In this document: positions 751 to 34,490 of the stretch, one piece after another
How the letters are laid out: each line of letters begins with the position of its first letter
How positions within the stretch are numbered: the first letter of the stretch is position 1
NCBI GenBank assembly: GCA_008632985.1
Contig: QPGO01000383.1
Coordinates: 1-35,359 of the forward strand
Origin: Psammoneis japonica
Lineage: Eukaryota
Direction: 5' to 3'
Length of the DNA: 35,359 nt
Translations under genes and position numbers: made by a program
Notes under the pieces: generated by a model
The model's database searches: none
The model's input: only the letters and a program-made list of their open reading frames with translations
What the model was told of the DNA's origin: nothing

Positions 751-1089
751 CACTTAAGAGTAATATAGAGGTTATACCATATATTCGTGCATTTACACAA
801 ATGGTATGTTTTTGAAATTTTGGCTGGTCACTCCTATTGCCAGAAATTTTTAGTATTGAAATTTCTTCATGACATCATGCCAATCATCGTATGAATACCC
901 TCAGGTATGGAGTATTACAAATCAATTGATTACGTTCTCAACGGACCTCAACCTCCACCGCACCTGGTGGCGTCGCTGATGATGGTCTGAACTCACGATC
1001 ATGCACACAAATGGCGTGTGGGTGTTCTCGTTTGTAGAGGAAGCGGCCATTGTCGTTGGTTACTGGTAACCGCATAGAGGAGGGATATA

Positions 1090-3128
1090 ATGAAGAGGCA
1101 AAGCAGTGGTGGTAACAGAGAGGCGAGAGGATCCGATCCTATTCCTACTTCTGTTTCTGTTAGGACCTTTGTTTTGAGTGCAGCTGTATGCGCATTGTTC
1201 AGTTTTGCGGTTGGGTATTCGTTGGATCCGCTCTTGACATGCTACGAACAATTCTTGCAGCAGAGACGAGAGGCTTCAGAAGAGATTCAGTACATTCGAG
1301 AGCAGGACGAAACGTTTGGTGAACAATGCGGATCAGCCTATCATCCCATTTCCTTTTTTCGGAAAAAGTCTCAAGCTCCACCCACAAAGTACTCGTCCAA
1401 GACATTTTATGGCAATGACAACGATCAGTGCTCGACTACGTTTGATATGAGTCCCAACACAAGCAAGGGATTTTCGAAAAAGATGCTTTCCTCAGGAGGT
1501 CACTTGTTGGTGGATATGAGAGGCGTCGACGGAGACTTTTTAGATTCGTCCTCGAGGTTGGGCCATGCAATCGTGACGACTGCTAGGGAATCTTCGCTTA
1601 ACATGCTGTCCTTTCACTGTCACCAAATGGTTCCGTGTGGAGTGAGCTGTATTGGATTAATGTCTGAGGGGTACATGTCCTTCCATACTTGGCCTGAAGA
1701 ACAAGTGATTACCTTTGATATGTTTGCGAGCGGGACGTTTGAGATTACTGACTTTATGCCCAGCATCGAACGGAACTTTGGGGTTTCCAGAAACGGACCA
1801 CCCACTGTCATTTGGGGACACAAGCTGAGGGGTCGCAAGGATGGTGTGAAAACGACCGACTTGACGAGGCGTATCCTAGGTTTTACTGGTGTGGATGTAA
1901 AGAAAGAGGTACACAATAATGTATTGCTGATTGTCTTTGCGAATTCTTGGTCTTTCCCGCGTTCTCTCATTCTCATCAACCGTCTGTACTTGTTCAGATT
2001 GCATCCTTTGAAACAGAACACCAAAAGATTCAAGTTCATGACGTGGTTAAGAAGGACCTTGCCAACATTATGGCGGACTCGCACGAAACCAATCGTATTT
2101 TGCACTTGAACGGAGCCATCCAGTCGTCCCTGCCGTCGTTTTACGAGGCATTGGTACACCCCGCCATGTTTTCTCACGCGAATCCCCAACGCGTTGTGAT
2201 TGCCGGTGGTGGGTATGGTTCGGCCCTTCGTGAGGTACTCAAGCACAGTTCTGTCAAGAGTGCAACCATGATTGAATTGGACGAGCATGTGGTGGACGTT
2301 ACGAAGGAATTCCTCCCGGAATTGCATGATTGCACAGATCTTGTCGGAGTTGCAGATGTTTGTCTTGACGATCCAAAGGCTACAGTACAATACGAAGATG
2401 CAGAGGCTTGGTTTGTGAACCGATACGCCAACAAAAACAACATCCTGGGGGATCTTTTGGATGTCGTCATTATTAACTCAATGTATGTCGAATTTCACAG
2501 CTTGCAATTGATAAGTCGATTCAACGAACCTTGAGACTCAACCCAGCGCTACCCGTTCTCTCTTACTCTTCTAAACTACAGCGATCCCCATGTTGATTTG
2601 CCCTCAAGCGATCAACTTCACGTCCACGCAAAGTTTGTTCAGTCCCTGTACAATTCGCTTTCGGACGATGGAATTGTCGTTATGCTCATGGGGAAAGCCC
2701 CCGAGGTTACCGATGCTCCAAACACTCCACCCATCAAACACCGTGGCATCATGACACGTATGCTTCAACAGGCAGGCTTTGGCGGAACAGTCGCATATGA
2801 AGAGACACACGGCGGTTTTAACGGACCGCGTAGTTTTCTCGTGGCATTCAAGAGCGAAACGTCCCGCAACCACTGGCTTGCCAGTGAGGCAGTCAAGGAA
2901 CACGACATGATTTCACGGGCGGTACCGACGGCATCTGGAGAATCGCCGTTTCGATACTATGATGGGGCAATCATGACGTCGTACCAACGACAAGAACAAG
3001 ATGATGATGAGGCTACAAACTGTATTGGGAAAGACGAGCTCGTCAGCTATCTGGAAAAGGCCAAGAGTCCAGAGGACTGGTCACGGCAATTGTCGCAGCT
3101 TCCTGCAATATGTAAGGAAACCAAATGA
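1090..3128 (+). CDS. S-adenosylmethionine decarboxylase-like / spermidine synthase-like fusion (diatom long-chain polyamine synthase type). Exons 1090-1908, 1998-2482, 2582-3128; ~616 aa
   Basis: N-terminal hydrophobic anchor FVLSAAVCALFSFAVGYSL. Class-1b AdoMetDC motifs GHLLVD...SFHTWPE..ITFDMF. Aminopropyltransferase motifs EALVHPAM.SH.NP.RV.I.GGG.G..LREVLKH, IELDE.VV and DVVIINSIDP (across intron 2). GT-AG introns 1909-1997 and 2483-2581 join the three ORFs in frame. Confidence 0.88.
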
Positions 3129-8820: not shown

Positions 8821-9257
8821 GTGTTACAGTGCTATCCGATGCAATGTACAATCTCACCAACTATCAAGACACCAAGAAAAACGCCGTTGCTTGCATCCAG
8901 ACATTGGCAGACTCGTTCTAATCAAGATTGTGGGATCGAAAGAAAGTTGACATTCGCATTTGCTCATTCAGCCACCTTATCAAAGTTCATCTTTTCTACT
9001 TTTCTATCGTAACATTCTTCATTCATGCAGTCGAAGTTGATGGCTATGTAGGGCCTGCTGTGCGCATCATAGCTTACATCAGTGCAGTCGCATTTTCATC
9101 CCTCCGGATCCACTGCTTTTAGCGATCTATGTTTTTTATTTTGAAATTTTGAACGTGTCACCCCTCAGAAATTCCCTCCGACAAATTCCGTGCTTGCGCC
9201 AGATCTTTTCATTTCGCTCTGCGGTCGCTGATCTTGCGAACATGAAGAGCGGTTATC

Positions 9258-11913
9258 ATGATATTTGCTGCTATTGCTTTCACAATCCTTTTCTTATTCG
9301 TTCCTGTGTCTTGCTTGTTGTCCGATAATGATGAATCTTTCATTTCATGGTGCCACTGCATGGGACGGTTCGGCAATCAAGTCGACCAATTTCTAGGCGG
9401 CTTGCGCATCGCCAAACAATTGAATCGCACGCTCGTGGTTCCACCCTTTGTGGAATACATCGGGCGCAGTCGACGTTATGTGCCTTTTGAGGAGTATTTC
9501 AATATGTCTAGCTTGCAGCGTACCATCGAGTGTTATCCATGGAGAACTTTTTTCGACGGTATGGACATGACGATTCCTGGAACAGAACAGCCTTTTGCAT
9601 CAAAACGTCGACATTTAACAAAGAGGAGTGCGACATGAGACGAGGACAGCCGTCAACGGATTTCTGGGATTTGTACGATGTTCAATTTGATGAGTCGGTT
9701 CATTACGAGCATTTCCAACTGACTCAGCCTCAAGTCTTTTCCGAATTGTATCCAGCGTCGCAATACCCGGTCGTTCTACTTCAGGGATGTCCTGGGGCCT
9801 ATCCCGTGTTGGCAAAGGACCGTAAATTGCAACGTCACGTTGTTTTTCGTGATGATATGCTACAGGAGAGTCTTGAACAGATTCAGGATCTCCCCAGACC
9901 AATCTTGTCAGTTCACATCCGCAATGGTTTGGATTGGCAACGGGCGTGTCAACATGGAGTTGGAGAGATCTCCTTCATGGAGTCGCCGCAATGTCTAGAT
10001 CCCGTTGGGAATGATACCATTCATGAAAATATGTGTTATCCAAGTCAGAACTTCACAGTGATTAGCGTTCGTCGCGTCGCTGTGGCAAAGGGTGCACAGT
10101 CAGTCTACATTGCAACCGACAAGGATTCGTGGACAATCGAGGTACGGAAAGAATTACGTCGTCATGGTCATGGACACGTTTTAGTACAGACAAGCCCATT
10201 TACGGGTGACAATGCTTATATACAAGACTTGGTTGTATTGAGCACCACAGACTTTTTTCTAGGGAATTGTATTTCGTCCTTTACGGGCTTCGCCGCTCGA
10301 TATCGACGTCATGTGAACATGCTGGACACGTTCTTTGTCGGGCTCAACTACACGGAAGATGATGTGGATGACATAAGCAACAGAGAAAGTTATCCATCAC
10401 GTAGGGAGGAGGTATCGATACCCGTCGACGAGTTCGGATACCATTGGCATGACTACTATGAGCAAGAAAACAGGCGTGCCAAGGCTTGTTACATTTTGCC
10501 CAATGCGGGTTCTGCCGTATCCGAAACGAGCTTGGATTCAACCGAGAAGGACTTTTTCGACGAGTGTGACTATGGCGCTGTGAACAAGCTACGTCGTGAG
10601 ATGAAATACGAATTTCATCGCAAGAATGGAGCGGAATCGTCACACTGGTTTGCACGGGTGAAAATTCTGTGCTTTGTCATGGCAAAAACGTCATGCTTCA
10701 CTTCCCAGACAAGATCGAATCTGGCACAAGAGACTGGCGAGAAGAGAAGAAGATGATTGAGCTAGTGGATGACAATGATGAAGAGTCTACTTATGACCTG
10801 AGAATTTCTCGTCCAACAATAGTGCTGAAGCCTGACTCGCACGCGAATTTCTATCATGCCATGTGTGATTTCTCTAATCTCTATCTGTCTTCACACGTGG
10901 TGGATAGCATCGAGTTTTCAGATTCTCGACATACGAAACAAGAGCTCAAGAAAACTTTTGATTTGCTCGTTTGGACGGATAGAACACAATTTCGTTCAAA
11001 GTTCGACGTGCTATATCGAGCATGGATTGGTTTAGACGGAGAGATTATAACCGCATCATCCTATGCCGGAAAGAAGGTATACTTTGATGAGCTGTTGCTC
11101 AGCTTGAATCCACGGGAACGACAAACAACTTCTTTTACAATATGTACGTCCCCGGCATGATGCGTCCGCTCGATGACAAGTGGGCACGGGGATCTTTCGA
11201 CGTGTCTTGCAGTGGCAGTGACTTCTTTGTAGACTTTTTGGATTTTATAAATCGCAACAACGCCGCCCTGGTCAACACTGCTGATGACTACATGAAGCGA
11301 TCTGATCGCCCCTTGGTCGTTCGAATGCTGTCACGGAGTAGCGGGACAGGGGCCACATCCGGACTCGCAAACTACTGAACGAACAAGAGGTGTTGATGGC
11401 GGTTCGCGAGAAATACAGTGACCAGCAGGTGGATATTTCCATTGTTGACTTTGATTGGTCGCAGCAGCACACAATCGAGAAGCAGATGGAGACTTTTCAA
11501 GCCTGTGACGTGCTCTTTGGTATGCATGGAGCTGGTCTAGCCAACATGTTATTCATGCCCCGATGGTCAAGCGTAGTGGAAGCCTACAACTGTGACGATG
11601 ACTGGTGCTATTCGGACCTGAGCCGCCTTTCAGGTTTTTCGTACTTCCGAGCTACGGAGGCCGACGTGGAACGTTTCAAGCCTGCGGTGGAGGTAAAAGA
11701 GTCTCATCAGGATCACAAGAAATACTTTGACTACAAAATCGACGTGGCCGTAGCCCTAAGGCTCATGAGAATGCTATGGGCGCGGTGATCAGACACAAAG
11801 ACTCTCCTTTTGATGCAAACAGCAAGTCTGTGCAAGATATATTGCGCTTGGATACGGAAAATCCTCACGATCCCAATGTGGTGAAGCCTTATCATATTCT
11901 TGACGAGTTGTAG
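9258..11913 (+). CDS. POFUT1-EOGT: Fusion of protein O-fucosyltransferase 1-like (GT65) and EGF-domain-specific O-GlcNAc transferase-like (GT61) domains. Signal peptide, C-terminal LDEL, ~886 aa after correcting five -1 frameshifts (~9520, ~10640, ~11125, ~11362, ~11767)
   Basis: POFUT1 motifs: WCHCMGRFGNQVDQFLG..IAKQLNRTLVVPP, YHRV.S, VHIRNGLDW..AC, SPQC, SVYIATD, DFFLGNCISSFTGF. EOGT motifs: FFDECDYG, ANFYHAMCDFSNLY, GKKVYF..L.PR, FFYN, RKLLNE, FGMHGAGLANMLFMPRW..VVEAYNCDDDWCYSDLSRLSG. The last frame ends ...ILDEL, TAG at 11911-11913. Confidence 0.82.
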
Positions 11914-12298
11914 GTGAATACCACCTGCAGGTTCTCCGAAGGTGTCTGATCTTTCAAAAGTAGCGCGAAACGAAGAACACTATAGAGACTATTTTATGTC
12001 GTGCGTATCAGTCTCCTTCTTTGTTCAACGCGAGCACAGCTGATTAGATTTTCTTTGTCACGCGAGAAGATTTTGAATGAAGACTAACTTTTCGTGACTT
12101 TGTAATTGTGGAGTAGGATACATTCGGTTCGGCAAGGTTGAACGGCTTTTCCAAAATCATCCTTACTATTCTTATTGTCTTTTTCTCGACCTACTTATGG
12201 ATTGACGATCTGGCTATTACAATGACAACGAGCGACGAAGCATGCGTCCGAGCGCTCACTCTGAAGGGCGAACCTTGCACTCCGCGGTCCATTGAAAC

Positions 12299-13624
12299 CT
12301 AAGGGTCCTCATCAGGCGCCTTGCAGATCAGGTAAGAATCAGCCGGGCGGACCTTGCACTCGAGACCAGGGCAGCACGCCAGATTGGAACATCCATTCCA
12401 ACGGCCCGTACAGCTGCCGGTCGGCGCACCAAAGGAGTTCCAATAGTAGTGCTGACAACCGTTGGCAATGCCACAGCGATCAACGGCGGCACACGTGTCC
12501 GCCGAATTTAAGCAACTAGTGAAATCCATGGTGCAACAACCGCTGCCACTGTTTGTTCCGGTCGGGTTCGCCGTCACAGGAGGACTTCCAGTAGGAGGTG
12601 AAGGAGGTGGAGGATTGGGGTTGATAGTAGGACTGGGAGTTGCGGGAGGTTCAACGGTTGGAGGAGGAGACGGGCTGGGGGTTGGCGATACGGTGGGTCC
12701 GGCAGCTCGAATGACAATCTCAGAACACTGCCAGTATTGCTGGGGATTATCTCCGCTGTCCGGGAGGGGCGGGTAACAGATCTTGCTCATTGATCCGTAA
12801 GGCGTCCATCCTTCAGGCCAACTGTAGTTGTTGTATCCAACGTTACGACAACCCAAATTCGTCAGCCAGTGCCATTGAAGTAAGACACGATCACCCGTAA
12901 CTCCATCGGGTAGCTTGAAGCGATGCCTAAAAAATCTCCAGAAACGTCAGCCTTGCTGTCTGTAATCATCTCACTAAATCCTGGAATGGTTGCATCAGCT
13001 GCGATTTTGGTGCGACACAGGGAGAGACGTGGATCGGAATCAGATCAGGAAAAGAAACGAAGACAAAAGAGATGCAGTACAATTTGTAATAAACTTACAG
13101 CCTCCCGGCCTAAGATAGGCACGATCTGGATAGCTTGGATCCTTTGGAGCTCCATAGAGTTGATCATCGATAAATTCGAGGCGGTTTGCGTCAAAGCAAG
13201 CTTGAGTGGGTGCGTCAACGTCGAGGCAAATTCCCATCTCGATGTGTCCAAGGTGGTTCGCTGATAGGATGGACTCGACTTCGATGATCTGCCCCTCTAT
13301 GTATGTCGCCTGAGGCGTAAACGGCATGGGATTGCCAGACCCTGTCACCCAATTGGTTGTGTAGTCCTTAGCATTGGCACCGACGTCACGTTTTCCACAG
13401 ACCCCGTAGGTATCGCCGCCCACCAAGTGGCAATGGGGACAGTACTCAACGAGGGGGAAAAGGTCAGCGTTGGCGTTGCCGGACTGAACACCATCTTCAG
13501 CCGAGAAAATCTGACGGCTACGGGGGCTGCTCATGTACCCATGCCCATTCACAGTCGTCGCGACGTTGAAGGCGAGGGTAAGGATGAGACTTGAAATCAA
13601 CATGATGTGGGAACAAGTTTCCAA
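12299..13624 (-). CDS. Secreted lytic polysaccharide monooxygenase-like (AA15/AA10, chitin-binding-3 type) protein with Pro-rich linker and Cys-rich C-terminal module. Intron 12999-13098; one -1 frameshift at A-run 12929-12934
   Basis: Signal peptide ending VNG then HGYMSSPRSR (N-terminal His). Second His motif SANHLGHIEMGIC. HRFKLP..LLQWHW and QQYWQCSEI. PTPSPSPPPT linker. C-terminal C..RW..C...CCPGLEC module. Start may be at 13603. Confidence 0.8.
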
Positions 13625-14286
13625 TCTTTATCTGAAACTCTGCAGTTTCTTACAATCTCCAGATTTTATGAGACTGGCAAAATGTGCGAAAAGGGAAGGG
13701 GTTGCAAGTTGCATACATGGGTGACGTCGAAAAGAACAACATTCTAGAATCGAACCGGATTCTCTAGAGGGCCCTAGAATCTTGTGAGCTGTCGTTCATG
13801 TCACGTGCACTCAACCGCTTCCGCCAGAAAAAGTCATCACGCCTTCTTATGCTTTGGGCATGGCGTCGCAACAGAGATGCGATACTCAGTGATAAATGAG
13901 ATGAAAATCACTAAGTGGACGTCCGCGCTTTCAGTCATTTAGCCAAGGGTCCCAAGGCCCGTCCATTTAAATAGGGCATGACCACAGTCTTGAAGGCATC
14001 GTCTGAATCATAATTGGTTGAAAGCAACTCATGACCAGCATCTTGTCATGTCTTGTCCAACCCCGATAGAGGGTGTGGGTGCGTGGGCAAAAGGTGAACC
14101 TCCGGCCCTCCGGCACATCGTCGCTGACGTTCGAACCGTTTCAAAAAAATTCGTCGGGCATCGGGCAGTGTCGCAAGCAAAGGAGGAAGCAGGTCAGACC
14201 GTCTCAAGACCGTTGAGATAACGCTTCTATAACGGATTAATTGGCTCACATTGCTGCATGCATGACGCGAGCGCTTCATAGCTTGA

Positions 14287-15490
14287 AATGAAGTCTCCCG
14301 CGATGCTTGCCGCAACCTCCTATCTCGCCTCCACCAAGGCCCTCCATCTGCTTTTTCCTTTCTTTGATCTTGTGTGTCAAAGTTCCAACAACTCTGCTGG
14401 TGTCATCACCTCGACTCATCCACCTGGGACTCTTTCGTCCAAGAAGAAGAAGGCCTCGCCAAATGTTGCCCTCTCGGTCCCGTCTTTGCCAGCCCAGCCC
14501 TCTCTCTCTCTCTCTTTCTCTCTTGTTCTTTTGTCTGCTTAGCCAAGAACTCCTTCAGCATCTCCCTGGCTGCTCTTGCATTGACGATGCACACGTCTTT
14601 TTTCCTCGCCACTCCACTCTCTCCCATGGTTCCTGGAACGCTTTTCTGCCCTTGTTGGTGCTCCCTGCAGCATCACCCTCAAGCTCCACAAAACCAAGAT
14701 TCTCACCTCCATCACTGGCACCAGTCCCATCCCCTCTCTCTCTCACTCTCAAGCTGGCCCTCTCTGTGCTGCTCTTTTGCATCTCAACCCTTTGAACACC
14801 AACCCTCCCTGCAGTCCTGAGCTCACCTCTGGTGTCCTCTTCCTTGGTCAGCCCCTTGGCTCCCATGAGTTTGCCAACTCCTTCCTCTTCACTGCCTCAT
14901 CCACTCTCTCTGACAAAGTTGGCAAGCTCCTCACCTGCCTTCACAACACAAACAAACCCAAGCCCAACTTTTCAAACACTGTTTCACGCCCTCCTCCGCT
15001 CACCTTCTTGGTGCTGATTTCTGCCATGACTTCAAACCTGACAACCCCCCCTGATCCCTTCCTTTGGACATCTTCCTTCCAAGATTCTCTTTTGACTGCC
15101 ACCCATTGGTTCCTTTGCTGTGTCACCTCCCATGCTGACACTCTCCCAGATCATTCCCTTGCCATCGCCTTTCTTCCAGCTTCTCTCAGCGGCTCTGGTG
15201 TTTGGGACCCAACAGCTGCTGCCATTTCTTCCTTTCTTGTTGCTCTCCTCCATTCCTTCCAATTTGCCTTCCATGGAGTTCAGCTGCTGTTCAGAGATGC
15301 CATTGCTCTCCCTTGCTGCTTCAGGCTGTCCATGTCCTCTTGGAACAACCCCAGCTTGACCCTTTGCCTCTCCACACATGATCTTCTGCCACTGTGCCCC
15401 TGCTCTTGCCTCTGCATCCACCCTTTCATTTTGCAGCACACTGAGCATCACAGCCATGGTGCTTTTCACAGCTTCTTTGGGTCTGCTTAA
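14287..15490 (+). mobile_element. 5'-truncated, degenerate non-LTR retrotransposon (RT domain; CRE-like by motif)
   Basis: RT motifs in order across frames: NEVSR, FPFFDL, EEG..CPLGP (QGxPL-like), CIDD at 14577-14588 (=YIDD), KTKILTS, FLGQPLGS, LP...SGSGVWDP (LPxxxGGLG-like). Confidence 0.75.
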
Positions 15491-18400
15491 AATGATGAAA
15501 AGTCACAGGCAGGGAGCAACAACTGCAAATTGTCAGTGAACCTAGTGGCGCGTGCAATTTGGTCACACCATGTGCAGATGGCAGGTCAGACCTCCTTTTT
15601 TTTGACAGCCAAGTGGATCTCTCTGAAGTCTGCTTCTCTTGCACTTTCTCATTGGCGCACATGTCATCCATTGTTGCCAGTTTCCAGGGAGGTTCATGTC
15701 AATTGCTGACTTGACTGTCCCTGCTTTGACAGGTTTTGGCCCCCTTGTGTTGCACCATGCTTTCTGCACTGTAAACCCCATTTTGTTTTGTTTGGTTTGT
15801 GATCTGATCAAGTGCACCTCTGACCTGCTCTGACCCTGCAAGGTTTTGTTGCCAGAGGAACTTCTGCTTGTGCAAGAACATCTTTTTTGTGCACCTCTCC
15901 CATGGTGACTCCTCCAAGAGGAAAGTCCATCATTGACACCCTTGCTTTCATCAAGGCTGCACTCCAGAAACTTTTCCAAGTCCCTCAAGCCATTCAGCTC
16001 CTTGAAGGCATTTGCAGCAATGCACCAGTTTTTGATCTGGATCTGTTTCTTGATGACAACAAACACACACACAATTGAAAGATCACACTTCAGAGATTGT
16101 CTCAGGTTGCACCCACAGAAAACCCCACTTTTGCCAAGTGCAAGGGGTCCTTCTGATGTCACATCTGTCAAATCCTCACTTCAAGTGAAAGCTCCACTTG
16201 CAGTGGGATCTAAGTGACACACCAAACAACTGCATCACATCAAAAGTGCCTCCAACAAGTGGATCTTTGCTCCCCCCCATGATTCACACTGCACATCTCT
16301 GGCATCCAAGAATCTGTTCAGCCCAGGTGCAGCACCATTGGATGTGCGCAAGCAGTTTGATCAGAATGCTGCAGGTGAAATGAAGGTCCAAAGTTCACTT
16401 GCTCCATTTCATGTGGCCCCATGTCATGGCCAGACCATGTCATTCTGGCTTCTGGCTGGTGGGTTGTTGTTTGTGATGAATCTGACCCCAGGCCACAAGG
16501 CATTGCTTCATGAGCCAAAAGTGCATGTCACAACAACTCTCTGCACACCAGCATTTTTCAATGATGCCTCAACACTCCATGCACACAGCTGATTGTGAGC
16601 ACTGTGTGAGCCCCACAGTGTTTCCTTGCAGCCATGGTGGTCATTGGGGCTTTGCGGTTGCGGATGACAAGGCTGATGACCAGCCACAATGAGCGCACAA
16701 TTTGCTGTCTCTTGAACCACCCCACACAATTCACAAGCTGCTGTCATGGTCTGACACATGCTTCCAAAGATCAGCAAGCTTCATCAGATTGTTGCATCAT
16801 GCTGTGGCACCAATGGCCACAGTGCATTGGAGCAGATGCCATTTCAAGTTCATCCATCTTTTTGCAAAGAGGTGCCAGGGCCACTCAATGGTCACCCGCA
16901 GTCTGTCAACTGCTGGCTGCTTTGTGGTGTTCCAACAAGACTCTTCTTCCTTGCACTGTGAGCATGAAAAATGACTGTGTCCATCAAGAGTGCAATGTGC
17001 ACCAAGAAGTGCCCAACAAGAGCAATGCACAGTGAACATGCCTCCTCAGCAGCACATGCCTCTGCAAGTGCACCAAGAAACAGAAGATTGTTGTTGAGAC
17101 TCCTGACTCTTTCCACTTTTTTTAGCCTGGTCAGACAGTCTTGTGACCAGTGAACACACCAGCAATCATGCTCCAAGTCAGATTTGTGGACAGGAATGAA
17201 GGAACAATGAATTGTCAACACAGAGTGTGGTGGGTGACAATGCCTCAGCTGGCTGCTCCCAAAGCCCCCGGCCAAGGAGACAGCTGTCCAAAAGCCAGCT
17301 GATGCTGTTGTTCCAGCTGGGGGCACTTTTGCAGCTGGTCTTAATGCACCAAGCACTGACAATGATCATCTTTCACATCATGCACCCTTGGTGTGCAACA
17401 TCAAAATGATGCCCAACAAGGCCTCAAAGAGATCATGCCTGGTGTGCACAGGAGATTTCCTTTTTCATGGTTGACCAGCCTTCACACTGGCAACCCTTGT
17501 GTCAAAGGATTTCACATTTTTTTGTCAGTTCTTGAAACGTGAAGTGGCCATGGGAGGGGGGGGTGTCACAGCTTCAAGGTGCACAAGGATGGCTGCCAAT
17601 GGATCAAGCTGCAACAGGAATCATTCGAAAATGTCGCGTGGGTCATGACTGACATTTTGCACAAGGAAAAACACAAAATCGTGTGGAAATGCACACAATG
17701 TCATACGAGAGAGTGATTGGAGCTAATGACTTTTCGGGAACTCAATTGAAATGCCATCTGATCGACGGCATTGCGATGGCCTTCACAAAATGCCGTGGAT
17801 CAGATGGCATTTCAATTGATTTCCCGAGAAGTTGACACTCGCACACGGATGGATGGACAGACTGACAACAATTGTTTTTGGTGCTCTCCCACACAATTTC
17901 CACGTGATGACTCTCAGGACCCGAATGATTCCCATTGTGCTGCCCCACCCACCACAACCCTGCCTCTGGATTTTTGCACATCACAGTCAACTTCAGATCT
18001 CCTGCAGAGCAGTCCATTGCTTTGTTGCCAACAGACAACAGCCTGATGATCACCTTCTGCGGCAGATCTTCTTTCTCCTGAGAGTGAGTTTGCTCATGTT
18101 CTGCTGTTGCCAACATCAACACCAAGGATGTTGCTGCAACTCTGTGTGTGGGCAATGACCCTTGCACTCCCATTGACAATCAGAGAAGGGCACAGGAGCC
18201 AACAAATGTGCCCAACGACTTTTTTGAATTGGTTTGTGCAGCATTGGATCATGGCACTGGGGCTTTGCAGTGACCAGCTCAACACACATCTCTCTGAACT
18301 CACGTTTGGATGCACATGGTGGTGGCACTGCTCCCACGGCACAAAATGAGAATCTTTTCAGGACAGCACCATCAGCTTTTTGAAGGATGGACATGATGGT

Positions 18401-21037: not shown

Positions 21038-22600
21038 TCATATTTCAGTAGCGTTGTGGAAGATTCTAGCATTCACGCCCACCAACTTTAAAGCATCCCG
21101 CACTATTCGCAGAGCATCTTCTGGAAACAGAATAATGTCACCTCCTGGATACGTGGTATTCGGTCGTTCATTGTGCCAAACCATATAAGGTCCTCTCATT
21201 GCCAAGAGCGAGCCAAACCGAATCCAATTGAGATCCGGCGGTGGCGGTGGAACAAGCTGCACCGAAACCGCTCCCTTTGGCAAGTAGATGCCATTCATCA
21301 ACCCTGCCCCGTTCATACCAACCAAGACTGCGTAGTTCTGTACTGATTGAATCTGCTGCGCAACGGTGCCACGAAAGCTTACCAAGTCCACCTCTGCCGA
21401 GGGTTTGAGTTTGGAGTTTAGGTACCGGACCACTTCTCCCTCATTGATGATGCACCGTCGACGGCGCTGGTCAGCTCGGGAAATGAAAGCTATTCGTGGC
21501 TTGGTTATTAGAGGAGGCGGTTGCTCACCCAGAGCCTGGTACTTCATGTAATCAATAAACGAGTTGACATTGCGAGACACAGCTTCTGGATCCTGCGACT
21601 CGGGAAACGAGTCATGAAATGGCGGAAGATCAATGTACAGATCACGAAAGCAAATATTTTTCCTTCCGGCTGAACCATTCATTGGGAAATTCCGAATATC
21701 CAATGGTACAAGAGAATGGCGCGACAAAAGTTGTAGGCCTGAATTATGAAAGTCGCTTGCACGTAAAAACGGTTCCCGAAAGAGGCTTGTGTTCCAAACC
21801 ACGTACTTGCCCCTGTCACGCACCACCGGCATGATCAATACATTCGGTCTAATCATCCTCCTGCCTCCTCCAAAGCTTCCATATTCCAAGAGCTCACTCG
21901 TCAAGAGCTGTTTGTAGAGAGGCAAGAGCGTATCATAGTGCACATGGAAGTAATTGGACTTGTACCACCAAAACACATCGACAAGAAATGTGGGCGTGTC
22001 AATGGTGGCGTCGCATGTTGGTGCCTCGTTATCCGAGCGACGCACGGCACTTTTGTAGCCAAGAAATTGAGTTAAGATCGTTTCCGCTTGCTGTGCTTGA
22101 TCATTGCGTACGACAAACTGTATCGGCGCAATGAGATCTTGTGTGGCGTTCGCCAAGCTGGAGGGAATCGTGGCAAAGTCTCCATAGATCTGTAGCCGAT
22201 GAAGCATGACATTATTCACGTGACAGTACCCCAGAAACGTGCTGCAGGGGTCCAGTATTTTCACATCTTGTAGTTGCACTGCTTTCGTCCCCAACAAGAC
22301 TTCTGGAGGAAATCCCCGTCCCAGATACGAATCGTACTCGAGGTCCAGCTTGGATGGAATGTTCAACACCAAGCTTGTAGCAAGAAGGAAGCAACACACA
22401 AAAACTGATTTTGGCCAATAATAAACAACAGCTCGTGACATATCGACGCGAGTCGCACCATGATGAAAAGCTCGTGCCGTTTCAGCCACTGGCCTCAGGT
22501 CAGATGATGCAGTAACATTATCCGTGATACTTTCCCCACATGCTTCCTTCTCTGCATCGGAAGTTTGTTTCCGTATCCTCCCTCTTCGTTGAGAAATCAT
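21038..22600 (-). CDS. Glycosyltransferase family 61 (DUF563), POMGNT2-like, type II membrane protein
   Basis: TM SVFVCCFLLATSLVL. NYFHVHYDTLLPLY (compare POMGNT2 NLMHVFHDDLLPLF), ICF, ISR...RCIINEGE, LVGMNGAGLMNGIYLPKGAVSVQLVP. Intronless 520-aa ORF. Confidence 0.8.
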   Translation of the reverse strand: MISQRRGRIRKQTSDAEKEACGESITDNVTASSDLRPVAETARAFHHGATRVDMSRAVVYYWPKSVFVCCFLLATSLVLNIPSKLDLEYDSYLGRGFPPEVLLGTKAVQLQDVKILDPCSTFLGYCHVNNVMLHRLQIYGDFATIPSSLANATQDLIAPIQFVVRNDQAQQAETILTQFLGYKSAVRRSDNEAPTCDATIDTPTFLVDVFWWYKSNYFHVHYDTLLPLYKQLLTSELLEYGSFGGGRRMIRPNVLIMPVVRDRGKYVVWNTSLFREPFLRASDFHNSGLQLLSRHSLVPLDIRNFPMNGSAGRKNICFRDLYIDLPPFHDSFPESQDPEAVSRNVNSFIDYMKYQALGEQPPPLITKPRIAFISRADQRRRRCIINEGEVVRYLNSKLKPSAEVDLVSFRGTVAQQIQSVQNYAVLVGMNGAGLMNGIYLPKGAVSVQLVPPPPPDLNWIRFGSLLAMRGPYMVWHNERPNTTYPGGDIILFPEDALRIVRDALKLVGVNARIFHNATEI

Positions 22601-23382
22601 TTCGGTGTTTTCATCACGTCTACTCTAGCTGCAAAAACCTGTTACATATTTACAGGAGAATATACAGTATGCCTTGCTATCGGTTATCTTCGTCTTGTCG
22701 GTGTGATCGATGATGGTGAAATGAAAAGCGCCTCTCTAGTAGGAACCTACGGACGGACGTCACACGTACGGTACGGTAGTCCTTGATGGATGCTTTCAGC
22801 TTCATAATCATTCAAACTCTCTCTATCAAAGTAGCGAGTCTAACGTAGAGAGATGAAGGAGATCAATCGATGAGAGGGCATTGGGCTGAGAGGTAGTCTA
22901 GCTAATAATCATGTACTGTCTATATAAAGTCCCGCCACTCTCAGTCCACATTCTTTTTTCGGCTGCAGGCGCAGCTCATCTTTTGATTTTTGGTTGGTTT
23001 TTTTGCTTTCAGCTCATCTTATGATTTTTCTTAGCTTTTTCCTTTGATACACTCTAGGCCCTAGATGTCCGCCTCCTAAATAGTAGACCGTGATTATGGT
23101 AGAGAAAGTAAGACCACGCATGGACCCGTCTTGAGGACTTGTCCTGAATTCTGGTTGGCTTCTTTGCCTCGAAAGAAAACAGGTCAGTTCTTGGAAGGAT
23201 TCTTGTTCAATGTATACTTTAACATGTATCTTCTAACTTGATAAATACGACTTGTATGGTTCAACATGTACTCATGCAGCAATAATGTTGGATGTATCTT
23301 CTAACTTGACTCATCATGCAAGATGTATATAGATATGTATGCAAACAGCAGGGGCCTTAGCGCTAAGGGCCTTAGCAAACTT

Positions 23383-23924
23383 CTAAGGCGGGGGGATTAC
23401 ACTCTCGCAATGTCGCCCAGTGAACCCTTCCTCACACACACATTTATATCTTTGACCCTCTGAAACGCAGTGCCCTCCGTTTTTGCAAGGGTTGGGATGG
23501 CAAGGGTTTGGCGGTGGGATTTCACTCTCGCAATGTGGCCCAGTGTACCCTTCGGCACACTGGCATCTATATTGGTCACACCTTGTCTGGCATGTCCCTC
23601 CGTTATCGCAAGGATTGGGAAGGCACGGGTTACTCGGTGGGGCACCAGAGCTTTCTGAACCCGAGCACTCCGCACTCGAGCTTAGTGCACGAGCCCTGAG
23701 TTGAGGTGCCCCTTTGACGGTGCCCTAGTGGAGAAGCAAGACACAAACACCATGGTGAGCGATACAATTCTCCTCCAGATTGCAAAGTATACAAATGACA
23801 TTGACTCTGCAATGGACCAAACAAATTGCTCTCAACACAGAAAAAGACTACATACCGGTGCGCCTTCCACGACGATGGAAGCGGCCGCGACCAAGGCGAG
23901 GACAGCTAGCAGACAAAGTTTCAT
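23383..23924 (-). CDS. Small secreted protein with two EGF-like repeats (136 aa). Exons 23924-23856 and 23724-23383; not in the ORF track
   Basis: ATG at 23924, signal peptide MKLCLLAVLALVAAASIVVEG. gtatgt...ctag intron 23855-23725, phase 0. NPCLPNPCDNGGTCQTRCDQYRCQCAEGYTGPHCE and NPCHPNPCKNGGHCVSEGQRYKCVCEEGFTGRHCE. TAG at 23385-23383. Confidence 0.85.
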
Positions 23925-24620: not shown

Positions 24621-26327
24621 TGCTTGCTACAAAACGGACGCAACGCGTACACTTGCAGAGTTCCTGCTCTTTACTTTCGTACGATTCCACGGAATTCTCG
24701 AAACTGGACTCCGCAAACGACAATCACATGACCGTAGATTGCGCATGATGTTAAGAGGGCGAGTATACGAGCAGCAGAGCATGCGCTGACGACGGAGAAC
24801 CCACCTTTGCTTTGATGTGTATGAACTCGTTGAATGTACCCTTTTCGATTTCCTGCTTCTTCTTTTTATGAGAGAATGGGGGATTGATTTGCGAAGCATG
24901 ACGGTGGTTCCATCAGGTCATTTGCGAAGGGTTACAATAAGTGGCATGCGCCGTCATGTCGTCACGATGAGAACATGGTGAAATCAATCGTGTTGCGAGA
25001 AAAAATTGGCGCACAAAAGAGAACACCGACGCCACAAGCACGATCAGTTCCAGAAACATTTTGTAGCATATCAAAGCACTTATAAGCGAACAAGAGATTC
25101 TTTAACACGGGCGACGGTTACCCTCTACTAGTCACAGCACGCTCGAATTCGCATTGTAAGATCGATGGAGACGCCATGACGCCATGGCGGCGCTCTTGGA
25201 CTGCGCGCACCGCGATGACGAATGACCGATGATGCGTCCAACTCCAACTCAATTTTGCGAGAGCGCGAACTCGCCAGACCGTATCTTTTCACTACGCGGT
25301 ACCTTACAAGCTACTGTACAAGACGTCAAAAGATCCAAAGTTGGTTCGTTTGACGTCGACAATGAGCCACCAGCCGCACTGCCGGTTGTTACATGGAGAG
25401 CATGAAGCTATTTGTAATGAGTATGATGCCAAAAAGAAACGGACGACAAGATGTCTCAGAGAGGCTGAAAGGCAACGGAACATCATCTTGCGTCAAAATT
25501 TCGATCTTTGACAAACCCACTGGATCTTTGCGGGGGGGAATGCAAAAAGGTGTTGGGTCACTGGGCCACCCTCTTGTTTTGCATCAATTGTCCCGTTATT
25601 TTGAATGCTGGATCGGTTTCATCATGCTTGTTGTTTGATGCACAGTGTCTTGCACATGCACTCTGCTGTCATTCGAAATGACAACAGGCCAGGCTTGAAA
25701 CGGTCGCGCCGTGAGACCCGTGTGGATGCCCACGCTACAAAGCAAACTTGAGAACTGCTTTTGAGACATCCAGGACATTTGGTGGCAGTGACACTTGCAC
25801 AGAGAGGCTAAAGTGGATCAATTGATGGGAGAGAGCATGTTGGGACGAGAGGCAAGCCAGCTGACAATCATGTGCTGTCATGTGCAAAGTTCCGCCACTC
25901 TCAGTCCACATGCTTTTTTCGGCTGCTGTTGCAGCTCATCTTTTGATTTTTGGTTGTTTTTGTTGGCCTTTGGCTCATCTTTCAATTTTTCTTGGTTTTC
26001 TTGTTTCAGTCTGCTTGAGACATGTCTCCCAAATGGCAGACCGAGATCACGACTTCATGTGGAGAAAGTGGGACCTCGCATGGACCCGCCTTGAGGACTG
26101 TTCCCGATTTCTGGTCGGCTTTGTTGCAGCAAAAGAAAATGGGTCAATTCTTGCAAGGATTCTTCTTTAACGTGCACTTTCCATGCATCTTCTAACTTGA
26201 TCCATGTGACTTGTGTGGTTCAACATGTGCCTCATGCAGCAACAATGTTGGATGCATCTTCTAACTTGACTCATCATGCAACATGCATGTCAACATGCAT
26301 GCATGCAGCAGGCGCCTCTGCAATCTT

Positions 26328-27290
26328 TTAAAACGGGGGGATTGCACTCTCGCAAAAATGCCCAGCACAACCTTTGGCACACACACATCTCCACCTGTGA
26401 CCCCTTGACTGGCGACGCGTTCCAGCTCTAGGTGGGACCTCGCACTGCTGCACTGTGACATCAACAGTTTTTTGGATCGCCTCGCATGTCGCGCACGTGC
26501 ATTTCTGCGTGTAAAATTCTACAAAATTGTCTCATGCTCCCTGTTTTGCGAAGCCAAAGGCTTTCTATTTTCAACATTTATGAGAATGAAAATACACTGG
26601 GCATGTTCTTTAATGTCTGAAGAACACACCCGGGCAAACCATCAATGATGTGCTCCAAGTGTGAAGGAGGAGATGCGTTCGTAAAATTGCCTCTTTTTCT
26701 GTTGGCGATCATTCACATTTTCATTGCAGGATAAATTTGCTACGGAGCTCGCACGTGGAATTCTATGGGCCCAATGTCACGCGGAGTCCCACCTGGGACT
26801 GGAACCCGTCTGGCATGTCCCTCCGTTCTTGCAAGGGTTGGGACGGCACAGGCCAGTTGCAGGGGACTTCACTCTCGCAATGTCATCCAGTGTGACCGTC
26901 GGCACACTGACATCTGCACCTGCCACCCCTTGATGCGCAACTCCCTCCATTCTGGCAAGGGTTGGGATTGCACGGGTTGGTCGCAGGGACTTCACTCTCG
27001 CAATGTCGTCCAGTGCAACCGTCGGCACACTGACATCTACACCTGTCACCCCTTGATGCGCAACTCCCTCCGTTCTGGCAAGGGTTGGGATCGCACGGGT
27101 TAGTCGCAGGGACTTCACTCTTGCAATGTCGTCCAGTGCAACTGTTGGCACACTGACATCTGTGCCTGTCACCCCTTGACACGCAACTCCCTCCATTCTG
27201 GCAAGGGTTGGGATCGCATGGGTTGGTGCCTTCCATGATGGTGGAAGCGCCCGCGACAAAGGCAAGGACATTTGGCAGACAAAGTTTCGT
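26328..27290 (-). pseudogene. Pseudogene paralog of the secreted EGF protein, four 40-aa EGF repeats
   Basis: ACG in place of ATG. Signal-peptide remnant KLCLPNVLAFVAGAS. Three 120-bp NPCxPNPCQNGGSC repeats plus a fourth split by an insertion. In-frame TGA at 26883-26885, 1-nt frameshift at ~26862, conserved Tyr replaced by Cys/His. Confidence 0.85.
26414..26810. mobile_element. 397-bp MITE-like non-autonomous DNA transposon, 25-bp TIRs, 4-bp TSD (TGGC)
   Basis: TIRs gacgcgttccagctctaggtgggac and revcomp gacgggttccagtcccaggtgggac (21/25). TGGC at 26410-26413 and 26811-26814. Removing the element plus one TSD restores NGGTCQSRGHRWRCVC in frame. Confidence 0.85.
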
Positions 27291-27759
27291 TGTTCGGAAA
27301 ACCGATTGTGCTCTCTTGCATTCTTTGCTTGCTTCAGTTCAAGTTCTCTGCAATGTCAAAGAAAGGACAGGCAAAGCGGTTGGCAACACACATTCTTTAA
27401 ACACGAGTCTAGAGAGGAGTCAATGAGGAAAGGCCCACAAGGAAGTGCCACGGCTCATGATCCACTCGGATGTTCAATTGCATCAAAGTCAAGCATGCGG
27501 TCAGCTGTGAGAACTCATGCAATCGTTTTGAACAGCGCTTCTAGCAGCAGCAGATCAGCTCACACAACGCCATGTGTGTTCAAGAACAGAACGGACAAGT
27601 CGCTTCACAAGCACAATGGGACAGACACGCTGTTATCTTGATGACCAAATGACAGTGTTCAATTGCACCGAACCTGATCAACGACAAGAACTCACACAAT
27701 GATTGTGATTTTGATGTTGCACTCATTGAAAGCGCTTCTTTCAATTTCTGGTTTCTTCC

Positions 27760-33376: not shown

Positions 33377-34039
33377 TTATGATTCAAAAAGCCCTTCTTC
33401 ATCAAACTCCCACTCATCGTCGTCATCCACTTTATCAAAATCAATTCCCTTTACCATTCCTTCCGGTACATCCACACTTTCACGTTTGTATCCCGACGCC
33501 ACCTTGTCAATTAAATACATGACATCGACCGCCGCCGACACGTCGGCTTGTGCAAAGGACAAGTTTGGAATCGTCTTCATGTGACTCAACCGTTGTGCCA
33601 AGGTGTGTCGAATCGGTTTGGAGCTTCGAACCAACCACGAGTAGGCTCGGCGCTTGTCCACGGCATCATCTCCCCGAATGGAAACCGTCACTCGTGCTTG
33701 ACGGAGATCGGGAGAAACATTGACGTGCACGACACTAATGCATTGTCGTACGTCCGAATCGAGATAATCCACGTCACGGCCTTTAATGTTGCCACTGTGA
33801 ATAATTTGAGATAATTCGGTACCAACCAGTCGACCGACACGTTCTTGACGTTTGGAACGTTCGGCTCCGGTGGATCTGGAAGAAGAAGAAGAAGAGTAAT
33901 ATGACATGCTGAGAGTTGATGTATGTTGTCTTGGTTGTGTTGGAATTGGTGCTTGGAACGAGTGAACCGCAAGGCTATTTATGAAAATCACCGCCAGCAA
34001 TATGAATCCATAACAAACAGTAGCTTTCAAACTTCTCAT
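33377..34039 (-). CDS. rbfA: Ribosome-binding factor A, plastid-targeted
   Basis: RQERVGRLV..ELSQII, ISVVHVNVSPDLRQARV.VS, IRHTLAQRL.HMK..PNLSF. Signal peptide followed by S-FQAP (ASAFAP-like). ATG at 34039. Confidence 0.9.
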   Translation of the reverse strand: MRSLKATVCYGFILLAVIFINSLAVHSFQAPIPTQPRQHTSTLSMSYYSSSSSSRSTGAERSKRQERVGRLVGTELSQIIHSGNIKGRDVDYLDSDVRQCISVVHVNVSPDLRQARVTVSIRGDDAVDKRRAYSWLVRSSKPIRHTLAQRLSHMKTIPNLSFAQADVSAAVDVMYLIDKVASGYKRESVDVPEGMVKGIDFDKVDDDDEWEFDEEGLFES

Positions 34040-34490
34040 GATACACAAGCTTTCTTTCTACTGACAACGTCTTCACTGATGTGATGGATGATTCGGCGAG
34101 TGTCGACGGCTTGCGTTCATGCTGGTTCGTTGAGCTCTGCTTGCGTTCGTTCAGTGGTCGTCGGCGAACCTCGCGCAAATCGCGCGTTTTCTGAGTTCAC
34201 CATGAATTGCATCCTTCATCCTGTAGAATCGTATTTATCGAATTGCGTCACGATTTAGTACGTCAGCCACAATTATGGATCCATCTCTTGCGTGGTCCTC
34301 CGTGTTTTTTGCTCGTGCTTTCGTTCATCGTCACTCATTTTTCTTTTTGTTCTTTCGTCATTCCAATTCACGCCATTCCATCGCACTATCTTCCTTGTGA
34401 GAATCGGGTTTTGTAAAAGCTGCTGGAGTTACTTACTTGTGTATGAGAAGAAGTGTCCTTTTCCTTTCTAATCAACTAGTATTCGACAAC

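Follow-up and report, generated by a model that had tools for sequence, protein, structure and literature searches.

The window analysed here (35,359 nucleotides, positions 1-35,359 of contig QPGO01000383.1) carries, at 9258-11913 on the plus strand, a gene that joins a POFUT1-type O-fucosyltransferase domain of glycosyltransferase family 65 (GT65) to an EOGT-like domain of glycosyltransferase family 61 (GT61). The native fusion gene is one intronless open reading frame (ORF) of about 886 codons that is interrupted at five positions in the assembly. The predicted product would be a soluble bifunctional transferase of the endoplasmic reticulum (ER) lumen that adds both O-linked fucose (O-Fuc) and O-linked N-acetylglucosamine (O-GlcNAc) to EGF repeats, an interpretation to which we assign a probability of roughly 55%. 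The parts of the gene are as follows:

9258-9329, plus strand: N-terminal hydrophobic segment, residues 1-24, signal peptide or signal anchor (hydropathy)
9333-10336, plus strand: POFUT1 (GT65)-type O-fucosyltransferase domain, residues 26-360, with the assembly gap 9510/9511 (Pfam and PDB matches)
10337-10779, plus strand: middle region, residues 361-508, with four cysteines, the FFDECDYG motif and, inside it, the assembly gap 10640/10641
10780-11755, plus strand: EOGT-like GT61 domain, residues 509-835, with the assembly gaps 11113/14 and 11360 (Pfam and PDB matches)
11756-11913, plus strand: C-terminal tail with the assembly gap 11765/11766

A POFUT1-type domain in the N-terminal half

The Pfam profile PF10250 (O-FucT) matches two consecutive pieces of the reading frame, piece A (9258-9509) with an E-value of 1.5e-16 (61.4 bits) and piece B (9512-10639) with 5.6e-23 (82.5 bits), the cut-off being 31.5 bits. 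Among solved structures, the query ORF B identifies POFUT1 only (mouse, 3.3e-40 and 3.7e-40; human, 3.9e-39; Caenorhabditis elegans, 3.2e-25), so that all four distinct PDB sequences matched at E<=0.01 are POFUT1, and piece A likewise retrieves only POFUT1 (3e-15 to 1e-13); POFUT2 is not matched at E<=0.01 among the solved structures by either query. Jointly, the alignments of pieces A and B span positions ~8-351 of the ~355 positions of the POFUT1 chain. In mouse numbering, Asn51 is the proton shuttle of POFUT1, and Arg245 and Ser362 contact the diphosphate, according to the accessible part of PMC12717137. The equivalents of all three are retained, namely N40 in the GRFGNQ motif (codon 9375-9377, within CxC-MGRFGNQ), R222 in HIRNG (9920-9922) and S340/S341 in GNCISSFT (10262-10285). 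In addition, C32/C34, C114/C125, C231, C246, C260 and C338 align with cysteines of mouse or C. elegans POFUT1, and every cysteine of the mouse sequence shown in the alignment of piece B has a cysteine counterpart. Judged by these matches, the N-terminal half is a complete POFUT1-type (GT65) domain, with the reservation that its affinity was compared with solved structures, a comparison outside which the plant GT106 family falls. The full POFUT1-like domain with the GRFGNQ asparagine and the HIRNG arginine had already been recognized in an earlier sequence-only reading of this stretch and is borne out here. Such a domain would transfer fucose to the serine or threonine of the motif C2-x4-(S/T)-C3 in folded EGF repeats.

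An HMMER search of the full protein library started with ORF B identifies 302 proteins at E<=1e-3. The best match is P0001, a metagenome protein of 413 residues with 54% identity, and the next named matches are POFUT1 of a choanoflagellate, a sea cucumber, a tunicate and a hemichordate. A quick tree of 68 rows comprises the query and those 67 of the first 100 HMMER matches that are 300-520 residues long. The query and P0001 form a sister pair in it with a Shimodaira-Hasegawa-like approximate likelihood ratio test (SH-aLRT) value of 100, inside a 25-row group that also includes Paulinella micropora, the fungus Hyaloraphidium curvatum and choanoflagellates, and the named animals are found among the other 43 rows. 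By the search, the nearest named relatives are holozoan POFUT1 proteins. No POFUT2 outgroup is included in the tree, and many of its forks lack support.

As a separate observation on these matches, the POFUT1-like protein model P0014 is interrupted by a Mos1-transposase helix-turn-helix domain, probably the result of a transposon insertion, or of an artefact of the gene model, in an animal genome.

An EOGT-like GT61 domain in the C-terminal half

The Pfam GT61 profile PF04577 matches piece E (11363-11764) with an E-value of 1e-14 (55.4 bits; cut-off 27). Among solved structures, piece C (10642-11112) identifies only EOGT (PDB entry 9WJK, 5.8e-9; 1.5e-7 after trimming), and piece E identifies EOGT (1.1e-18) and POMGNT2 (~1e-6); piece D (11115-11360) alone gives no meaningful match in this set. 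A profile constructed from the pieces together with P0151, the only close relative found, matches EOGT with an E-value of 6e-45 (157 bits; chain positions 198-474, corresponding to mouse ~228-504) and POMGNT2 with 9e-7 (31 bits). The nearest cluster in the Atlas is also named EOGT, which is a lead only. When each half is thus checked for family identity, the N-terminal one matches POFUT1 only and the C-terminal one prefers EOGT to POMGNT2, in agreement with the assignment made in the sequence-only reading, whose full EOGT-like domain holds in part: GT61 similarity is found for mouse EOGT ~228-504, but the first ~200 residues have no detectable counterpart.

The UDP contacts of EOGT are N245, H248, R372, R377, Q412 and H432, of which the N-R-R set is a GT61-wide triad, whereas Q412 and H432 are EOGT-specific and invariant in metazoan EOGT, as described in the consulted part of PMC13123520. 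Five of the six are retained here, as N531 and H534 (NFYH, 10846-10857), R694 (11334-11336), R705 (11366-11368) and Q744 (11483-11485). Taken together, the matches identify the C-terminal half as an EOGT-like GT61 domain, its closeness to EOGT having been measured against POMGNT2, the other solved GT61 enzyme, a comparison in which plant-type GT61, for which there is no solved structure, has no part.

The window contains a second GT61 gene (21038-22624, minus strand), which is intact, has 528 codons and encodes an N-terminal membrane anchor; it is located on the stretch that separates the fusion gene from the EGF-repeat genes described below. Used as an internal control, it shows the opposite preference to the C-terminal half of the fusion (POMGNT2 3e-7 versus EOGT 0.006), and the two are 27.5% identical over 109 residues.

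A single reading frame

The coding signal at 9258-11913 on the plus strand consists of six stop-free frame pieces, in frames 0, 2, 1, 0, 2 and 1:

Piece A: 9258-9509, plus strand
Piece B: 9512-10639, plus strand
Piece C: 10642-11112, plus strand
Piece D: 11115-11360, plus strand
Piece E: 11363-11764, plus strand
Piece F: 11767-11913, plus strand

All five frame changes are in the same direction, as from one absent base each, and pieces A-F, joined by a placeholder X per break, give 886 codons with zero stops. The breaks were examined in two public DNA runs (X1 and X2) from one sample and one study, the contigs of which were aligned to the window; the two runs contain 80% and 69%, respectively, of the words sampled from 9200-11950. 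No RNA run was among the public runs found to share this sequence. The read contigs add exactly one base at 9510/11, 10640/41, 11113/14, 11360 and 11765/66, and no further indels are listed in them across 9200-11950. The depth of contigs with the extra base, out of the total depth at each break, is given below, with sums where two inserted letters were counted separately:

9510/11: X1, 61.4 of 61.4; X2, 10.7 of 10.7
10640/41: X1, 35.5 + 32.2 of 67.7; X2, 7.4 + 8.7 of 16.1
11113/14: X1, 40 of 40; X2, 6.19 of 6.19
11360: X1, 46 of 46; X2, 13.3 of 13.3
11765/66: X1, 30.4 + 33 of 63.4; X2, 11.2 + 10.7 of 21.9

Because every contig at each of these positions carries one extra base, the five breaks are assembly deletions. 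Introns were considered as the source of the frame changes and rejected, given that homology is continuous over each break, where the reads contribute exactly one additional base. Two alternative letters are inserted at four of the five breaks, encoding the same amino acid either way (AGG/AGA, TCC/TCA, CGG/CGT and ATT/ATC); both alternatives occur inside each run at 10640/41 and 11765/66, and one per run at 9510/11 and 11113/14. Paired contigs over one stretch differ by up to ~8% (15 of 192 and 18 of 229 letters). Apparently, a base was lost from the consensus at positions of difference between two versions of the sequence, which are probably haplotypes. Other genes that appear frameshifted in this assembly may also be intact, single bases being probably absent beyond 9200-11950 as well.

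Among the 40 contig-versus-window differences listed (67 further differences are outside this set), 21 are synonymous and 19 non-synonymous, the expected synonymous fraction being ~21% under random change (p=1.5e-5) and 34% if all changes were transitions (p=0.01). The excess of synonymous differences among those listed points to purifying selection. The listed non-synonymous differences cluster in the middle region, at residues 418-429 and 491-503, and within both catalytic cores the listed differences are mostly synonymous.

The first significant similarity to EOGT starts at ~10780, downstream of the break at 10640, and therefore the fusion depends on that correction, which is supplied by the reads. 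In the sequence-only reading, the junction was placed inside one uninterrupted ORF and the fusion was taken to be independent of any frameshift correction. The stop-to-stop ORF 9512-10756 indeed exists, but the true frame leaves it at about 10640, and the claimed independence has to be abandoned. The proposal that FFDECDYG marks the N-terminus of the EOGT part lacks statistical support: no similarity to EOGT is detected in the middle region, this stretch included, even at E<=10. The reads, examined for a stop or a misjoin at the junction, restore the frame instead, and the corrected junction contains no stop and no second hydrophobic segment and has no need for a second start. The acidic linker that had been noted is present at residues 362-410 (13 Asp and Glu versus 6 Lys and Arg). 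Residues 362-508 are compatible in length with the N-terminal domain (P32-G93) and the Cys135-Cys187 region of EOGT, and contain four cysteines, with no significant match. A resemblance of the middle region to the EOGT N-lobe is no more than a lead.

That the locus is not one functional gene is very improbable and already largely refuted. A decaying pseudogene, two adjacent genes or a misassembly would be compatible with five frame breaks in 2.66 kb of window sequence, with the overlap, left uncorrected at 10640, between the ORF ending at 10756 and another opening at 10600, and with the failure of the searches made (see below) to find a fused relative. These readings are countered by the presence of the missing base in every contig at each break and the lack of in-frame stops after correction, by the synonymous excess, by the coverage of all 30 depth bins of 9200-11950 in both runs with no joints reported, and by the lack of a second signal peptide or hydrophobic segment with which a separate EOGT gene could begin. 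Accordingly, one intact fusion gene is the reading adopted in what follows.

Protein ends and upstream region

The start codon is the ATG at 9258, with an in-frame stop four codons upstream (9243-9245). In a Kyte-Doolittle plot with a 19-residue mean, residues 1-24 reach 2.6 and every other stretch of the fusion protein stays at or below 1.6; this sole hydrophobic segment corresponds to the signal peptide proposed previously and may be a signal peptide or a signal anchor. The C-terminus reads ...HILDEL, with LDEL at 11899-11910 followed by the stop TAG at 11911-11913, as had also been proposed. A related tetrapeptide, DDEL, is an ER retention signal in Phaeodactylum tricornutum, according to the part of PMC3229587 consulted. 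The GC content of the fusion is 0.47 and that of third codon positions (GC3) is 0.48-0.55, similar to neighbouring genes; the codon-usage correlation is too noisy for short genes and is informative for similar GC and GC3 only.

One further feature overlaps the start of the gene:

9242-9328, plus strand: short upstream ORF starting at ATG 9242, 28 codons, in another frame, overlapping the start at 9258

The ATG at 9242 sits in a good context and could open a regulatory upstream ORF, or else the transcript begins downstream of it. As the start of the fusion protein itself it was rejected, being in a different frame with no indel in the reads there.

Search for fused relatives and previous descriptions

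A word-index search for longer proteins yielded no match for ORF B and P0151 only for piece E. Among the best 150 of the 302 HMMER matches of ORF B, none extends past query residue ~295; the EOGT half, compared by blastp with the best 150 of the 302 POFUT1-like representatives, yields no match at E<=1, and a Pfam scan detects a GT61 domain in 0 of 23 POFUT1-like matches. The metagenome contigs scanned with ORF B contain no fused form, nor do the viral contig scans, and none of the 22 metagenome loci found with the GT61 alignment has a POFUT1-like part by tblastn. Look-ups in the Atlas led no further than the family level and revealed no fused cluster. These null results apply to protein libraries in which diatom proteomes may be thinly represented.

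No paper in open-access full text was found to describe such a fusion, or POFUT1 or EOGT in diatoms, which agrees, as does the lack of a fused relative among the proteins and contigs searched, with the earlier statement that no description of it was known. In the pages consulted, Gazave et al. 2009 (PMC2770060) list O-fut as holozoan-specific, and the conservation of EOGT is traced within Metazoa in the accessible part of PMC13123520. A review on microalgae treats GT61 members as putative N-glycan xylosyltransferases (PMC12507850).

Predicted function and candidate acceptors

A mechanism can be proposed in which one nuclear gene would give rise to an ER-lumenal protein of ~886 residues in a plastid-bearing alga that is probably a diatom or else another ochrophyte. 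From the N- to the C-terminus, this protein would comprise a signal peptide, the POFUT1-type domain, a putatively lineage-specific middle of ~150 residues, the EOGT-type domain and the LDEL retrieval signal, all presumably translated from a single transcript. The POFUT1 domain would place O-fucose on the serine or threonine between Cys2 and Cys3 of folded EGF repeats, and the EOGT domain would place O-GlcNAc on the serine or threonine between Cys5 and Cys6. The acceptors would be secreted EGF-repeat proteins such as the two that are encoded 11-15 kb away:

26886-27338, minus strand: candidate acceptor gene 1, at least 3 EGF repeats, complete at 27000-27095 and 27123-27218 (Pfam EGF 3.5e-11, hEGF 2.4e-8)
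23386-23724, minus strand: candidate acceptor gene 2, two EGF repeats at 23407-23502 and 23530-23625 (Pfam EGF 3.8e-18, hEGF 1.5e-8)

The consensus sites in EGF repeats are C2-x4-(S/T)-C3 for O-Fuc, C5-xxGx(S/T)Gxx-C6 for O-GlcNAc and C1-xSx(P/A)-C2 for O-linked glucose (O-Glc), as given in the part of PMC8950332 consulted. A six-frame scan of the window detects four complete six-cysteine EGF patterns, all on the minus strand and in these two genes (23407-23625 and 27000-27218). An O-Fuc site is present in three of the four patterns, an O-GlcNAc site in three of four and an O-Glc site in none. Gene 1 contains CQNGGSC O-Fuc sites and one complete O-GlcNAc site, with further repeats downstream in other frames; gene 2 has an O-Fuc site in one repeat and an O-GlcNAc site in both. 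The frame shifts in the EGF-repeat genes probably come from the same type of single-base assembly error, and both genes would be linked to the fusion enzyme as its substrates.

In their wider setting, 22900-23900 and 26000-27400 of the minus strand hold a pair of paralogous small genes with EGF repeats; each probably encodes a signal peptide, and their C-terminal parts are alike, 23017-23232 resembling 26058-26219.

Several observations weigh against a bifunctional EGF transferase of the ER. In the C-terminal half, the position of the EOGT uridine contact H432 is occupied by N764 (11543-11545; the residue is His in P0151), ten residues separate R694 from R705 compared with four in EOGT, the six extra ones being in a Gly/Ser/Thr-rich stretch, the metazoan-invariant glycosylation site N263 is replaced by Val with zero sequons in the entire half, and no counterpart of the first ~200 residues of EOGT (the N-terminal domain and the Cys135-Cys187 region) is detected. 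The plant and protist GT61 clades are outside the comparison of this half. The putative signal peptide has no basic n-region, LDEL differs from the classical K/HDEL ER signal, and the upstream ATG at 9242 opens a short ORF that overlaps the start. One O-GlcNAc-type site in the EGF repeats has a Cys, not an aromatic residue, before the Thr. Finally, the two runs are possibly the assembly's own source, so that they test the consensus and are not an independent isolate.

The points concerning the C-terminal half bear on two alternatives that accept the fusion as real. Under the first, which is unlikely but deserves consideration, the two domains build up a single glycan in sequence, or the donor or acceptor of the GT61 half is a different one. 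The GT61 half could, for instance, add beta-linked GlcNAc, xylose or arabinose to O-fucose left by the POFUT1-type domain, a Fringe-like or POMGNT2-like step with parallels among other two-domain glycosyltransferases. Natural fusions of two glycosyltransferases usually build one glycan stepwise, which counts for this possibility. It also fits the donor-site region, which is unlike that of metazoan EOGT (the Asn at H432 and the six-residue insert between the arginines), the unrecognizable N-terminal part of EOGT, and the breadth of GT61, which includes the O-mannose-extending POMGNT2 and plant xylosyl- and arabinosyltransferases (PMC13123520, in the part consulted; PMC12507850). It is disfavoured by the EOGT match being ~125 bits above the POMGNT2 match, by the retention of the EOGT-specific uridine contact Q412, and by the separate O-GlcNAc consensus site of the nearby EGF repeats.

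Under the second alternative, which we regard as improbable, one half of the fusion has no catalytic activity and acts only as a chaperone or as a module that binds EGF repeats. A catalysis-independent chaperone role has been discussed for fly Ofut1, which counts in favour of this view, as do the deviations of the EOGT half already listed (H432 to Asn, the insert, and N263 to Val). The equivalents of the N-R-R triad, H248 and Q412 are all present, as are the Asn, Arg and Ser of POFUT1, and the mostly synonymous character of the listed differences in both catalytic cores likewise argues for activity of each half. On balance, the bifunctional EGF O-Fuc/O-GlcNAc transferase is the interpretation best compatible with the whole of the evidence.

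A broader hypothesis, to which we would give somewhat less than an even chance, is that a photosynthetic stramenopile runs the animal "Notch-type" sugar code of EGF repeats without Notch, using one fused ER enzyme to install both sugars; it is suggested by the fusion together with the neighbouring EGF-repeat genes that bear both acceptor motifs. Work on POFUT1 and EOGT has dealt almost exclusively with separate enzymes of animals, which tune Notch and further proteins with EGF repeats. If the hypothesis is true, the EGF O-glycosylation module is older than the animals, or an alga acquired it as a whole, and the fusion would represent Rosetta-stone genetic evidence that POFUT1 and EOGT are a functional pair with one folded domain as their shared target. 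EGF O-glycosylation, possibly in the role of ER folding quality control, would then reach a major group of marine primary producers, and the fusion would provide a compact single-polypeptide tool for the glyco-engineering of EGF domains.

Other genes in the window

Convergent with the fusion gene is a gene at 12299-13627 (minus strand) that encodes an LPMO_10 (AA10-like) domain, a Pro/Thr-rich linker and a Cys-rich C-terminal module, and contains an intron of 93 bases (12947-13039). The region 14000-16000 shows a strong negative GC skew (-0.31 and -0.24) together with AT skew, and an ORF at 14585-15490 (plus strand) encodes a Ser/Pro/Leu-rich protein with no Pfam family.

At 1078-3128 (plus strand), S-adenosylmethionine (AdoMet) decarboxylase and spermine/spermidine synthase domains are encoded in adjacent overlapping frames and may belong to one fused gene with a frame break, in which an in-frame stop is located at 2532-2534. 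The pairing of AdoMet decarboxylase with spermine synthase is familiar from diatoms, in which fusions of this kind are associated with the synthesis of long-chain polyamines. A search for longer proteins started with the AdoMet decarboxylase piece gave no match. An RbfA homologue at 33377-34057 (minus strand) starts with a signal peptide followed by ...AVHS/FQAP, which we take to resemble the ASAFAP-type bipartite plastid presequence of algae with complex red plastids; this is a hint as to the type of organism.

Comparison with known systems

Multi-domain glycosyltransferase fusions include LARGE1 and PgtA. Another example is Dictyostelium PgtB, with GT1, GT2, GT4 and GT61-like domains (PMC13123520, in the part consulted), which resembles the present protein in combining several glycosyltransferase domains, one of them of the GT61 family, in one polypeptide, but differs in its other partner domains and in its triad, which is F-R-R and not N-R-R. 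None of the three pairs GT65 with GT61 or targets EGF repeats.

The nearest relatives of the N-terminal half, P0001 and the POFUT1-like proteins of Paulinella micropora, Hyaloraphidium curvatum and choanoflagellates, are stand-alone proteins, and P0001 has a C-terminal transmembrane segment and no GT61 domain. For the C-terminal half, the relative of the same GT61 subfamily is P0151 (381 amino acids, from an ENA metagenome contig), which is 33% identical over 351 residues (3e-62) and in which the two arginines are likewise separated by ten Gly/Ser/Thr-rich residues. In its predicted form, P0151 has no POFUT1 part and begins just before the KPDSHANFYH block; it may be a truncated gene model. 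It retains His at the H432 position.

Animal POFUT1/Ofut1 (GT65; mouse 5KXH, human 5UX6, C. elegans 3ZY2) is collinear with the N-terminal half over nearly the whole catalytic domain, shares CxC-MGRFGNQ, HxRxG, GNCxSSFT and the aligned cysteines, and has a comparable predicted location in the ER lumen with an xDEL-type end. It is a stand-alone enzyme of ~390 residues, whereas the fusion runs ~525 residues further into a GT61 domain, at the end of which the putative ER signal is found. Animal EOGT (GT61; mouse 9WJK) shares with the C-terminal half the equivalents of N245/H248, R372, R377 and Q412, the YNC-D..CY.DL.RL.G block and an xDEL end as a putative ER signal. The fusion differs from it by the H432 to Asn change, the six-residue insert between the arginines and the absent N263 sequon; its EOGT-like half also has no recognizable N-terminal domain (P32-G93) or following ~130 residues and no signal peptide of its own, and instead stands behind a POFUT1-type domain.

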